Virus record (IMG/VR): IMGVR_UViG_2778261529_000002
Span: 1-43,597 of that record
DNA length: 43,597 bases
Reading direction: 5' to 3' (one strand)
From: a virus
Lineage: Duplodnaviria > Heunggongvirae > Uroviricota > Caudoviricetes
The translations under genes were made by a program, and so were the position numbers. Of this stretch, positions 38,426 to 41,226 are shown piece by piece. Within the stretch, counting starts at the first letter, position 1. Every line of letters starts with the position of its first letter. The notes under the pieces are model-generated. The model searched no databases, had not been told where the DNA came from, and saw only the letters and a program-made list of their open reading frames with translations.

Positions 38426-39111
38426 TGGCAAAAAATGACTTTAAAGCATTCGCAACGGGTAAAAATGCCAATGTTATGTCGCAGGAGGAATGGGAAGCGT
38501 TGCCTGCGCTTTTATCCGGATTTACAGCAGGGAAAGCATCCAGTGCGCAAGTCAATAAGGTTATTCGGCAGGCCAGCTTTATTGCTGCAGCTCTGGCCCA
38601 GTTTGTAAGTGACAAAACGCAACGGGATGTGCTTGATAATGGTGATCTGCCCGGTTTTGTTGAATTGCTGGGATCGGGGTTTGCTGTTGAATACCTGAGC
38701 CGCAAGAATCCGTTTGGTGATATCAAATCGGATGGCGCGGTGAAAACGGCTCTCGAAAACCTTGGTTTGGGAGAATTATCTCTGGCTGGCACTGCATCGG
38801 GTGTCATTGGTCTGAATGGGTATGTAACGATTCCGTTAATTATTTCAGGTTCCCGGAGAACACTGATTATTCAGTGGGGGCAGGCGAGATTTGGTGGGTC
38901 TGGTGGTGAAGATGCCGGATATCTTAATGATTTTCCTTTTGCCTTTCCGTCAGCATGTTATGGAATGATAGTTAGTCATGTGGGGCATACACCTTCAGGC
39001 GCAGGAATCCTGTCGGCTTCTGCAATTACATCAAATCAGTTCCGCGGTTTTTCAAGCATAGCGACTGCTGCAAACGCTGTATTAGGTCGTTATATCGCTA
39101 TAGGGGTGTAA
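38407..39111 (+). CDS. Tail fibre protein: constant N-terminal part fused in this orientation to variable C-terminal part Sv
   Basis: Crossover site within the gene at 38756-38775 encoding ENLGLGE. Confidence 0.75.
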   Translation: MGSITLMAKNDFKAFATGKNANVMSQEEWEALPALLSGFTAGKASSAQVNKVIRQASFIAAALAQFVSDKTQRDVLDNGDLPGFVELLGSGFAVEYLSRKNPFGDIKSDGAVKTALENLGLGELSLAGTASGVIGLNGYVTIPLIISGSRRTLIIQWGQARFGGSGGEDAGYLNDFPFAFPSACYGMIVSHVGHTPSGAGILSASAITSNQFRGFSSIATAANAVLGRYIAIGV

Positions 39112-39112
39112 T

Positions 39113-39550
39113 ATGTTTTATAGTCCATCTTTAAACATTTTTGTGAATCCTGCACTTAAGGATGATTACATTAATGCAAATTCATGGCCAGATGATGCTC
39201 TGGCTGTCAGTGATGATGTTTATAATGAATTTGCAATAAATACGCCCCCAGATGGCAAAATTCGTGTTGCAGGAGAAAATGGATTACCCACATGGGCACT
39301 AATACCTCCACCATCACATGAAGAACTTATTCAACAGGCAGAATCAGAAAGGCAATTATTGCTTAATCAGGCCAACGAATACATGAACAGTAAACAATGG
39401 CCCGGTAAAGCCGCTATTGGTCGTCTGAAAGACGAGGAACTGGCGCAATATAATTTGTGGCTGGATTACCTGGACGCACTGGAGCTGGTTGATACCTCCA
39501 GTGTGCCAGATATTGAATGGCCTACGCCTCCGGCAGTTCAGGCCAGATGA
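39113..39550 (+). CDS. Tail fibre assembly protein (Tfa, U-like)
   Basis: 145 aa, typical Tfa N-terminus. Confidence 0.8.
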   Translation: MFYSPSLNIFVNPALKDDYINANSWPDDALAVSDDVYNEFAINTPPDGKIRVAGENGLPTWALIPPPSHEELIQQAESERQLLLNQANEYMNSKQWPGKAAIGRLKDEELAQYNLWLDYLDALELVDTSSVPDIEWPTPPAVQAR

Positions 39551-40124
39551 CATCCGGCGCTGTGCTGGTATCTGTTGCCGTCACCGCGTCAATGTAATCC
39601 AGCACAGTGTTAAGTCGGGTGGTCTCTGCCTGCATCAGCTTCCGCCCGGCCTGCAATTTAAGTTGAATCAGACTAATGGAAGCCATTGCAGTATTAATCA
39701 GTGACTGACGCTGTACTTCTGCCGCGTCTACTGCGGCGCTATGCTGTGCCTCAGTATCGGTCACCCATTTCTTACCATCCCATTTATCGAATGGCGTTAA
39801 CGGGGCGATAGTGGTTGTATTTTCAGGATAATCACCCGGAGCTGTGATTTCTTTGGCGTCTCCCGTTTCGGTGTTATAGACGATTTCACCGCGATGGTCT
39901 GGCACATATTCCCATGAGTTTAAATCCATCGAACGGCAGATAGCATAACCCGCCTTATGTATACCAGGTTCATCCAGACAGGAATATGCAGGGATACCGA
40001 CACCAATGGCAAGATATTCATTTGAAGTAGAAATATATTCCCGAGTTTTACCATCATAGTTATAGACGGTAATATTCCCCGCCTTCGTGGCAATAAGCTC
40101 GCTATTTAATACGGCGTTATCCAT
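39522..40124 (-). CDS. Alternative tail fibre assembly protein (U-prime)
   Basis: 200 aa on opposite strand inside the invertible segment; C-terminus resembles Tfa. Confidence 0.75.
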   Translation of the reverse strand: MDNAVLNSELIATKAGNITVYNYDGKTREYISTSNEYLAIGVGIPAYSCLDEPGIHKAGYAICRSMDLNSWEYVPDHRGEIVYNTETGDAKEITAPGDYPENTTTIAPLTPFDKWDGKKWVTDTEAQHSAAVDAAEVQRQSLINTAMASISLIQLKLQAGRKLMQAETTRLNTVLDYIDAVTATDTSTAPDVIWPELPEA

Positions 40125-40611
40125 TATGCAGCCCTCACGATATAGTTAAATGCAATATTTCGTGGACGGGTTTCACTCCCGCCAGTATTACCGATACTCC
40201 CTCGTGAATGAAGTGTCGGTGATGGGATCAGACTCCCTCCTGTATTTGTGGCATCAAGTCCCCGTCCTTGTGTGTATGTCTTTTTGAAAATCGTAGCCAG
40301 TTCCCATTCATCTTTTGTGTCGTAACCATCATTGGCAACAACAATATGGCGGTGTTTTTCCAGCATCCCTGTCTGAATGCTCAATAAAACACGTCCTGCA
40401 TCAATACCGCGCCCGTCATCCCAGCCACGAATAAACTCACCACGTAAATCAGGCAATTTATTTGTCGGATAAGCCTTTGCCAGTTCCGGGTATTCTTCAG
40501 CAGAAAAAGCCGCACCGTTGCATTTCAGCCAGCCTGTTGGCGGTGTGGCTGAAGGCCATGGAACAGGCACACCAACAGGTAATGCAGAGCCTTCTCCCAA
40601 ACCAACGTTTA
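40124..40611 (-). CDS. Alternative tail-fibre C-terminal segment (Sv-prime); no own start, expressed only after inversion
   Basis: Reading frame continues from the crossover site, which encodes the same GLGE motif as the S constant part. Confidence 0.55.
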
Positions 40612-40671
40612 TAAAAATGCAGAAATAACGAGCAAATGGCATCATTCCTGCTTTTGTCAGGGGGATCTACC

Positions 40672-41226
40672 ATGCTTATTGGCTATGTACGTGTGTCAAC
40701 AAATGACCAGAACACAGATCTACAGCGTAATGCGCTGAACTGTGCAGGATGCGAGCTGATTTTTGAAGACAAGATAAGCGGTACAAAGTCCGAAAGGCCG
40801 GGACTGAAAAAACTGCTCAGGACATTATCGGAAGGTGACACTCTGGTTGTCTGGAAGCTGGACAGGTTAGGGCGCAGTATGCGGCATCTTGTTACGCTGA
40901 TAGAAGAGTTGCGCCAGCGTGGCGTGAATTTCCGAAGCCTGACTGACAGTATTGATACCAGTACCCCAATGGGCCGTTTCTTTTTTCATGTCATGGGTGC
41001 CCTGGCTGAAATGGAACGAGAACTGATTGTTGAACGAACAAAAGCTGGACTGGAAGCTGCTCGCGCACAGGGACGAATTGGTGGACGTCGTCCCAAACTT
41101 ACACCAGAACAATGGGCGCAGGCCGGGCGATTAATTGCATCAGGCGTTCCTCGCCAGAAGGTGGCGATCATCTATGATGTTGGTATATCGACACTGTATA
41201 AGAAGTTTCCGGTCGGAGATAAATGA
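40672..41226 (+). CDS. pin: Serine recombinase DNA invertase (Pin/Gin/Hin family)
   Basis: 184 aa from MLIGYVRVSTNDQ, near-identical to e14 Pin as I recall it; ORF-track start 40636 is upstream of the real ATG. Confidence 0.9.
   Translation: MLIGYVRVSTNDQNTDLQRNALNCAGCELIFEDKISGTKSERPGLKKLLRTLSEGDTLVVWKLDRLGRSMRHLVTLIEELRQRGVNFRSLTDSIDTSTPMGRFFFHVMGALAEMERELIVERTKAGLEAARAQGRIGGRRPKLTPEQWAQAGRLIASGVPRQKVAIIYDVGISTLYKKFPVGDK

Follow-up and report, generated by a model that had tools for sequence, protein, structure and literature searches.

A probable Pin-type inversion switch for the tail fibre of a SEN34-like Escherichia coli prophage

Within the window (the whole 43,597-nucleotide stretch of viral DNA analyzed here), an open reading frame at 38425-39111 (+) encodes a tail fibre of 228 aa with a gp53-like C-terminal domain recognized by Pfam. 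The first 113 aa (38425-38762, +; ending ...SRKNPFGDIKSDGAVKTALENL) were delimited from the ORF and its translation as a constant N-terminal part that inversion leaves unmoved. RefSeq gives the equivalent fibre start in a 96.8%-identical relative, and the last ~65 bp of the constant part are common to e14-like prophages, whose homology begins at query position 399, i.e., at 38698 of the window. The remainder of the gene, tip A (38763-39111, +; PF21882, E = 8e-12), is now fused to this constant part and thus expressed. It is followed by a gene for a 145-aa tail-fibre assembly protein in the same orientation (chaperone A, 39113-39550, +; Caudo_TAP, E = 7e-35). On the opposite strand lie a second tip of the Collar-domain type (tip B, 40124-40604, -; PF07484, E = 1e-15), parked beside the invertase gene pin without a fibre N-terminus, and the co-oriented gene for a 200-aa assembly protein (chaperone B, 39522-40124, -; Caudo_TAP, E = 3e-31), the 3' end of which overlaps that of chaperone A by 29 bp. 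Each tip therefore has its own Caudo_TAP gene directly downstream on the same strand, one per strand, and the ORFs and Pfam domains bear out the two convergent sets of fibre-tip and assembly genes described in the first-pass annotation. Between the segment and pin, a short fixed leader with its own ATG at 40645 (MMPFARYFCIFINV; 40605-40645, -) reads into whichever tip is parked there, giving the ORF 40124-40645.

The two tips are, as judged by their sequence relatives, members of different fold families, with tip A gp53-like/R-pyocin-like and tip B collar/T4 gp37-gp12-like. Tip A shares 49% identity with e14 StfP over aa 92-185 and faintly resembles the fibre tip of the R1 pyocin (6CXB, E = 0.003); among 50,697 phage records we found no relative above 44% identity, with matches at only 35-44%. 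Tip B is 63% identical to e14 StfE, counts the T4 gp37 tip (2XGF, E = 1e-17) and gp12 among its relatives, and has its best match among deposited phages at 73% (57% for HK97 Stf). Of the two chaperones, A is 50% identical to e14 TfaP and only B, the TfaE counterpart, reaches 86.5%. None of these matches allows a receptor to be named for either tip, given that the PDB sequence matches are fold-level relatives only and that identity in phage records is at most 44% for tip A and 73% for tip B.

The carrier prophage encodes an IntS-like integrase and a DUF2612/baseplate-J baseplate. Its structural module looks complete, with genes in the order, and mostly of the lengths, that RefSeq annotates in a 98.3%-identical relative. 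This best structural-module match, UPEC 26-1, has a different cassette, and the window as it stands was found in no complete E. coli genome searched. The structural module is also related to that of SEN34 (83% identity over 48% of the 24.6-kb query), an inducible myovirus that forms virions (PMC5261728).

Two crossover sites of 26 bp with a 12-2-12 structure bracket the tips and chaperones. The left site, pixL (38750-38775), reads CTCTCGAAAACC TT GGTTTGGGAGAA, with the core TT at 38762-38763, and the right site, pixR (40592-40617), reads TTCTCCCAAACC AA CGTTTATAAAAA, with the core AA at 40604-40605. Both align with gixL/R, cixL/R, and e14 pixL/R. In each, two imperfect half-sites of 12 bp flank a 2-bp core, and the two sites are inverted relative to each other with matching cores TT/AA. 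pixL equals the left e14 site of K-12 at 26/26 positions (L006, 11779-11804), and pixR is identical to e14 pixR at 25/26. An inverted repeat does lie where it had first been placed (38757-38775 and 40592-40610; 19 nt, 95% complementary, 1816 nt between the arms). The first-pass annotation had described two inverted 20-bp sites that differ only by C or G at one position; the sites are present, but the 20-mers differ at two positions (18/20), the second copy being TAAACGTTGGTTTGGGAGAA. Allowing up to three mismatches, this 20-mer occurs exactly twice in the 43.6-kb window, compared to 0.00 expected occurrences in 100 dinucleotide-preserving shuffles. No third crossover site, as in the shufflon-like arrangement of p15B Min, was detected within the window.

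The invertase gene pin (40672-41226, +; 184 aa) lies just outside the segment, as first proposed, 54 bp from pixR, and encodes an N-terminal Resolvase domain (E = 1.4e-52) and a C-terminal HTH_7 domain (E = 4.5e-13), the domain layout of small serine recombinases of this family, which have about 180-195 aa. The protein is 94% identical to e14 PinE, 82% to Cin, and 77% to Gin, and it aligns with crystallized Gin (3UJ3/4M6F) without gaps over 181 aa (E = 2.8e-94 for 3UJ3). An inactive pin gene, together with a single orientation ever observed, had been named beforehand as evidence against a working switch. The gene is intact and the catalytic Ser9 is kept (YVRVS9TNDQ), where the alignment has Ala in 3UJ3, an S9A crystal form, and Ser in 4M6F; the LDRLGRS motif is also present. 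By these sequence features, the invertase of the window is an intact Pin orthologue. A presumed recombinational (Fis-binding) enhancer was placed by homology in the 5' part of pin (40690-40761), based on the P1 record, which annotates the Cin enhancer at nt 19-90 of cin; in the Gin, Cin, and Hin systems the enhancer has two Fis sites and acts in cis from the early part of the invertase gene. This stretch is identical to e14 pinE at 69/72 positions, to cin at 54/72, and to gin at 53/72. When synonymous-codon identity in codons 7-30 was compared with the rest of the gene among pin, gin, cin, and the P2-like invertase, p was below 0.05 in only 2 of the 10 pairs. A simple promoter and terminator scan of 38200-41400 returned four promoter-like sites compared to 5.4 expected, none of them placed for pin or the leader ORF.

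The invertible segment comprises the 1,842 bp between the crossover cores (38763-40604), as defined by the breakpoints of natural pairs and by an in-frame in-silico flip. The first-pass annotation had correctly recognized a bracketed segment, but its length of 1.86 kb is the distance between the outer edges of the sites. The left site is inside the fibre ORF, and each site encodes ...GLGE in the frame of its tip, the shared joint that had been proposed. When 38763-40604 was reverse-complemented in silico, the constant N-terminus was joined in frame to the other C-terminus, yielding a fibre of 272 aa in place of the 228 aa as found, with a stop that overlaps the start of chaperone B. The junctions formed are ...GAAAACCTTGGTTTGGGAGAAGGCTCTGCA... 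between the constant part and tip B and ...AGAGATAATTCTCCCAAACCAACGTTTATAAAAATG... between tip A and pin. Inversion is thus predicted to exchange the tip together with its chaperone, as had been suggested.

Overall, the region 38425-41226 very probably is a site-specific inversion switch of the Gin/Cin/Hin/Pin family that acts on the tail-fibre gene of an E. coli prophage, a SEN34-like temperate myovirus. In the proposed mechanism, dimers of Pin, a small serine recombinase, would bind the two 26-bp sites, and strand exchange at the 2-bp cores (38762-38763 and 40604-40605) would turn over the 1,842 bp between them. The fibre promoter, the start, and the first 113 codons would stay fixed, and the codons past ...ENLGLGE and the next chaperone gene would be replaced. 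The captured state would produce the 228-aa fibre with its gp53-like tip, then chaperone A; the alternate state would produce the 272-aa fibre with its collar/gp37-like tip, then chaperone B. A lysogen population could in this way release virions of two adsorption specificities. Membership in this recombinase family suggests that the reaction would depend on DNA supercoiling and on Fis bound at the enhancer. This very copy would be expected to flip in its host, tips A and B would recognize different receptors, and, by the precedent of Mu and P1, the two fibre states may differ in host range.

Both orientations occur in nature, and the window captures one of two states, as the first-pass annotation had proposed. 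Cassettes ~97.5-98% identical to that of the window, contiguous from the constant part through pin, are present in complete E. coli genomes in the orientation of the window (H1-H4) and in the flipped orientation (H56-H59). The sibling ETEC strains ETEC1730 and ETEC1703 share a locus occupied by one P2-like prophage; its flanks are 99.98% identical between them, and the two copies differ by a 1,847-bp inversion bounded by the sites. In the natural pairs L002/L003 and L004/L005 the breakpoints lie inside the shared TT GGTTTGGGAGAA; L004/L005 likewise differ by an inversion, and there the sequences switch directly behind GGTTTGGGAGAA. L010, a prophage whose baseplate genes are those of the window, is in the flipped state and has an annotated 272-aa fibre. 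In 19 genomes the tip-A allele is joined to a similar constant part, in 47 it is parked next to pin, and in 917 the collar tip occupies the place next to pin; these counts are not strictly comparable, given that the collar-tip start is conserved across many cassettes and that P2-type constant parts were excluded from the 19, and they serve only as proof that both tip positions occur. Viral contigs also hold reciprocal pairs of expressed and silent tips.

The closest known system is the e14 P segment of K-12 with its invertase PinE (stfP-tfaP-tfaE-stfE-pinE), which has the same gene order, the same convergent layout, and the same 29-bp overlap of the chaperone genes. The two share the joint ...SRKNPFGDIKSDG.V.TALENLGLGE and a defence-type gene after pin, with a GIY-YIG gene of the window in the position held by mcrA in e14. 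The mechanism is known, as had been noted at the outset: inversion of the e14 segment by PinE was demonstrated experimentally (PMC4272514; PMC12529663), with ~30% reported as inverted in wild-type cultures (PMC12529663). However, e14 is a defective lambdoid prophage at icd whereas the carrier here is SEN34-like, a myovirus prophage that looks complete. Its fibre N-terminus has no relation to that of e14 up to the last ~30 aa, and pixR has a private variant at 40613. We therefore do not regard the cassette as a strict orthologue of the e14 P segment: the invertase and sites match, but the tips have diverged (49 and 63% identity) and the carrier is not e14 at icd.

The same logic is found in the Mu G segment with Gin and the P1 C segment with Cin, in which a constant Sc, two variable Sv parts, and convergent U/U' chaperone genes lie next to an invertase gene just outside the segment. 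Mu and P1 also have 26-bp 12-2-12 sites, and the stretch of the window homologous to the annotated P1 enhancer, a presumed enhancer here, falls near the 5' end of pin. The segment of the window is shorter (1.84 kb, compared to ~3.06 kb in Mu and 4.26 kb in P1), and its fibres of 228 and 272 aa are much shorter than Mu S (504 aa) and P1 S (987 aa). The core dinucleotide of Mu is TC/GA, unlike TT/AA here, and the tips have no DNA-level homology to S or S' of Mu or P1. P2-like prophages (e.g., ETEC1730/ETEC1703 and phage pro483) carry both tips, both chaperones, and the invertase at ~95% identity to the window, as a cassette that is seen in both orientations in sibling strains. Their cassettes, however, sit on a P2 gpH-type constant part with homology beginning at the crossover site (query position 460, 38759 of the window), the outer half of their left site differs (TTCTCACATACC), and their invertase is 86% identical to Pin. 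Hin of the Salmonella H segment belongs to the same recombinase family, and its DNA-binding domain (1HCR) matches the Pin C-terminus; however, Hin flips a promoter whereas the system of the window flips coding tips.

We considered whether the switch could be locked or crippled in this specimen and fixed in the tip-A state, either by the A at 40613 or by a lack of pin expression. The variant is a private G-to-A of pixR (C-to-T at position 5 of the outer half-site). Of the 8 distinct half-sites compared, 7 have C at this position; the comparators checked carry G in place of the A at 40613, and this A was absent from all 140 related loci compared. The exact pixR variant was sought in either orientation state and found in neither, and the 84-nt stretch 40592-40675 has no exact match among complete E. 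coli genomes (best, 98.8%). The substitution might weaken Pin binding, and no consensus σ-70 promoter was found upstream of pin. Several observations nevertheless make a locked switch unlikely. The inner gix half-site of Mu is functional with a T at the equivalent position. Loci known in both states show natural variation in their outer half-sites (TTTTCATAAACG, TTTTCTTAAACG, and, at the left site of P2-like prophages, TTCTCACATACC), pin is intact, and a simple promoter scan carries no information on its expression. Pin-family enzymes also cross-react on each other's sites, and inversion of the Mu G segment by PinE has been reported (PMC12529663, discussion). The chance that the repeat is accidental or merely homologous, with inversion by general (RecA) recombination and no dedicated invertase, is negligible. 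The arms are short (19 bp) and nothing specific speaks for this reading; 19 bp is far below the length of an efficient RecA substrate. The shuffles predict no chance matches, both sites show the gix/cix/pix dyad in its 12-2-12 form and adjoin a Pin orthologue, and natural-pair breakpoints fall exactly at the sites.

A further alternative, compatible with a fibre switch, is that the cassette is mainly a phase-variable defence of benefit to the host, in which the parked tip, expressed from the fixed leader (MMPFARYFCIFINV-GLGE-tip), would act as a free protein that blocks the adsorption of other phages. The leader ORF with its own ATG lies outside the segment and is conserved with e14 StfE, which begins MPFACYFFIFINV, and inversion of the e14 P segment is reported to create StfE2, which is produced and blocks T2 adsorption (PMC12529663). 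However, the leader ATG is preceded by no promoter-like site and only by a poorly spaced AGGA, and tips just 49-63% identical to those of e14 mean that the T2-specific effect is not transferable. The structural module looks complete and the relative SEN34 makes virions, and thus a function in the fibre is the simpler reading; we consider a mainly defensive role improbable. By analogy with e14, the parked tip could also be translated from the leader as a free tip protein, with inversion toggling the virion tip and the adsorption block of the lysogen together, although we give this proposal little credence. If true, it would make a widespread cassette a dual-use switch of host range and defence in an intact prophage.

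As a switch for the tail fibre, the cassette of the window is of an ordinary, well-understood type, and nothing in it conflicts with current understanding. For annotation, this means that the window displays one of two alternative fibre genes, and that the 173-aa ‘tail fiber protein’ ORF next to pin is no fibre gene in its own right but the detached end of the alternative fibre. Any prediction of host range for the prophage has to weigh both the 228-aa and the 272-aa fibre. The comparison also illustrates known points: the Pin cassette passes as a unit among unrelated tail types (SEN34-like, e14/Mu-like, and P2-like), recombining at the GLGE joint or immediately upstream of it, and in nature this joint bears many tip types.

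Two near-identical sites in inverted orientation bound a segment of the tail-fibre locus in the window. A repeat search recovered arms of 19 nt at 38757-38775 and 40592-40610 (18/19 complementary, spacing 1,816 nt), and the 20-mer singled out by the first-pass annotation, with up to three mismatches allowed, occurs twice in the 43.6-kb window compared with 0.00 expected from 100 shuffles, which puts the inverted repeat where that annotation had placed it. The two 20-mers are near-identical, as that annotation had stated, but do not differ only at a C/G position: the second copy reads TAAACGTTGG..., which brings the mismatches to two. 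On the gix and cix model, each site comprises 26 bp, with two 12-bp half-sites flanking a 2-bp core. The left site (pixL, 38750-38775) is CTCTCGAAAACC TT GGTTTGGGAGAA and the right site (pixR, 40592-40617) is TTCTCCCAAACC AA CGTTTATAAAAA. The half-site identical between them is the segment-internal one, the cores (TT, 38762-63; AA, 40604-05) are one dinucleotide in inverted orientation, and the layout matches that of gixL/R and cixL/R in the Mu and P1 records. The DNA predicted to turn over is 38763-40604 (1,842 bp).

The ORFs and Pfam domains are those expected from the proposed two convergent sets of tip and assembly genes with an invertase outside the segment. The fibre gene (38425-39111, plus strand), whose ATG overlaps the stop of the DUF2612 baseplate gene, encodes a C-terminal gp53-like domain (PF21882) and is followed by a Caudo_TAP tail-fibre assembly protein gene (chaperone A, 39113-39550, plus). 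Convergent with the latter, and overlapping it by 29 bp, is a second Caudo_TAP assembly gene (chaperone B, 39522-40124, minus), next to a collar-domain tip (tip B, PF07484, 40124-40604, minus); pin lies beyond (40672-41226, plus; 184 aa, Resolvase+HTH_7). The crossover site encodes GLGE on both strands, and this joint is present at both sites in the frame of each tip, as had been claimed. When 38763-40604 is reverse-complemented in silico, 113 constant codons join the collar tip in frame, yielding a fibre of 272 aa, with its stop codon overlapping the start of the chaperone B gene. The suggested swap of tip and chaperone is thus borne out by an in-frame flip and by the occurrence of both states in nature.

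Pin is 94% identical to PinE of the defective K-12 prophage e14, 82% to P1 Cin and 77% to Mu Gin. It aligns without gaps to crystallised Gin over 181 residues (E=3e-94) and retains the catalytic Ser9 that is replaced by Ala in 3UJ3. The Cin enhancer is annotated at nt 19-90 of cin in the P1 record; the homologous stretch of pin is identical to pinE at 69/72 positions and to cin at 54/72, and this 5' stretch of pin contains a putative recombinational enhancer. When synonymous-codon identity there (codons 7-30) was compared with that in the remainder of the gene for pin, gin, cin and the P2-like invertase, 2 of 10 pairs gave p<0.05. By analogy with the family, Pin dimers bound at both sites would be brought together with the Fis-bound enhancer, and Pin would then cut the 2-bp cores, rotate and religate them. 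Judging from Mu and P1, the two fibre forms may confer different adsorption specificities. Tip A, the tip fused to the constant part in the window, and tip B fall in separate fold families: tip B has relatives in the T4 tips of gp37 (E=1e-17) and gp12 (E=2e-16), and for tip A the sole similarity was a faint one to the fibre tips of R-pyocins (E=0.003). Comparison with related tips allowed no receptor to be named for either.

Both orientations were recovered when the window and its flipped version were searched against 5,426 complete E. coli genomes. The window orientation gave one contiguous match that begins at the end of the constant part and runs across pin into the next gene (97.5-97.7% identity, matches H1-H4), and the flipped orientation an equally contiguous one (97.5-98.0%, H56-H59). 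One P2-like prophage, adjoining pflB/focA, is shared by ETEC1730 and ETEC1703, pig isolates described in a single study, and the protein accessions of the recombinase and of both chaperones coincide. The flanks agree at 99.98%, and the two copies are rearranged relative to each other solely by an inversion of 1,847 bp that the sites delimit. In an e14/Mu-like prophage pair (L004/L005), the sequence after GGTTTGGGAGAA is swapped between sites while the outer half-sites stay fixed. A prophage sharing the window's baseplate genes (L010) is in the flipped state, and its annotated fibre of 272 aa (819 nt) has the predicted length. In 19 genomes the tip-A allele of the window is joined to a similar constant part, and in 47 it lies beside pin. 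Among 127 loci with the exact left site, taken from IMG/VR and species-representative genomes, 14 different four-residue tip starts are seen after this site, and reciprocal expressed/silent pairs occur (collar expressed with AAKRD silent 11 times, the reverse 4 times). K-12 cultures contain the e14 P segment as a mixture of both orientations (PMC4272514), and it is inverted by PinE, PinQ and PinR alike (PMC12529663). The exact 26-bp E. coli-type left site was also found at 155-180 of a 5.8-kb contig labelled 'MAG: Bacillota bacterium' (JAEWTL010000032.1, L138), most likely a mis-binned enterobacterial prophage fragment.

The window system and the e14 Pin/pix machinery are orthologous, but cargo and prophage are not the same. 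Its left site is identical to that of e14 and its right site differs by one base, and stfP-tfaP-tfaE-stfE-pinE has the same gene order, convergent layout and 29-bp chaperone overlap. The cargo has diverged: identity is 49% between tip A and StfP, 50% between chaperone A and TfaP, 63% between tip B and StfE and 86.5% between chaperone B and TfaE, and the fibre N-terminus is unrelated to that of StfP except in the last ~30 residues ahead of the joint. Because tips and carrier differ, the locus is distinct from the e14 P segment proper. The same cassette is joined to three unrelated fibre N-termini; homology with the window cassette starts at the crossover site in the P2-like type, whereas in the e14-like type it starts 65 bp upstream. 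Modular exchange of this kind is already within the textbook picture of tail-fibre evolution.

That the repeat arose by chance, or that inversion is driven by RecA, is very improbable given the shuffled expectation for the 20-mer and the inversions of the natural pairs, which are bounded by the sites. It is also unlikely that the switch is locked, slowed or crippled in the window copy, an idea raised by a private A at 40613, in the outer half-site of pixR, in contrast to the G of all comparators examined (TTTTTATAAACG in the window, outer-to-centre, vs TTTTCATAAACG elsewhere). The variant was found in 0/140 fetched loci; complete E. coli genomes held no exact match to the 84 nt of 40592-40675, the best matches being one base off, and 40613 is among the differences in 6/6 loci aligned over this stretch. 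The corresponding position is C in 7/8 distinct pix, gix and cix half-sites compared. However, the exception, the inner gix half-site of Mu, has T and is functional, and inversion of the Mu G segment by PinE has been reported (PMC12529663); for these reasons we think that the right site probably still works.

A role of the parked tip in host defence, although compatible with fibre switching, also seems doubtful. The ORF next to pin starts at an ATG of its own that lies beyond the segment (MMPFARYFCIFINV-GLGE...), a feature shared with e14 StfE, and the e14 equivalent after inversion is reported to block T2 adsorption (PMC12529663). On the other hand, the prophage appears complete, no promoter-like site was found for the ORF, and the AGGA ahead of its ATG is poorly spaced, which makes a role in the fibre the simpler interpretation.

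Just right of pin, a perfect 17-bp direct repeat, CACGTCGTATGCAAGAA (41235-41251 and 42259-42275; ~35 bp with imperfect matches), flanks a LEM-3-like GIY-YIG nuclease ORF (41287-42111, minus), in whose place e14 has mcrA. The first copy also lies 3' of pinE in several other prophages; homology with other pin and GIY-YIG loci ends within the second copy (42270), and with a relative without the GIY-YIG gene at 41266. The spot resembles the edge of a cassette or a hotspot at which defence-type genes insert. An inverted repeat of 26 nt (22/26 matching) has one arm in the pin leader (40642-40667), kept in most pin loci examined including e14 and not found in L010, and the other within the GIY-YIG ORF (41521-41546), conserved together with that gene; it may be a recombination scar or chance.

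The carrier is a complete-looking myovirus-type prophage, not e14, with genes for terminase, DUF1073 portal, DUF2184 capsid, DUF3383 sheath, tape measure, baseplate J and DUF2612. Its structural genes are 98.3% identical to those of prophages of UPEC 26-1 and others, and it is ~94.5% identical to vB_EcoM-606R2 records over 58% of the query. The closest carrier relative, in UPEC 26-1 (NZ_CP016497.1, L007 22487-25049), has a different invertible cassette, consisting of a 284-aa fibre, a single chaperone gene and a 167-aa opposing tip, then pinE; its alternative tip appears to have no chaperone of its own. Adjacent tRNA genes, Asn-GTT (16424-16498) and Thr-TGT (16504-16579), both plus, lie upstream of the terminase genes. 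A P4/IntS-type tyrosine integrase (42440-43597, minus; Arm-DNA-bind_3, Phage_int_M, Phage_integrase), annotated intS in relatives, occupies the window end ~1.2 kb past pin, and its att site must lie beyond the window. The structural module is related, at 83% identity across 48% of the query, to that of Salmonella phage SEN34. Because SEN34 is a temperate myovirus that can be induced (PMC5261728), host range is a meaningful concept for this phage family.

Overall, the locus combines an intact Pin, two compatible sites and alternative in-frame fusions, each with its own chaperone, and near-identical cassettes occur in nature in both states. In the features that sequence can test it passes as a member of the Gin/Cin/Hin/Pin family of invertible segments and works alike, and the first-pass annotation was correct in calling the Pin-controlled segment a known mechanism. 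The switch is of a known type; what is new here is another member, with diverged cargo, in a different prophage.
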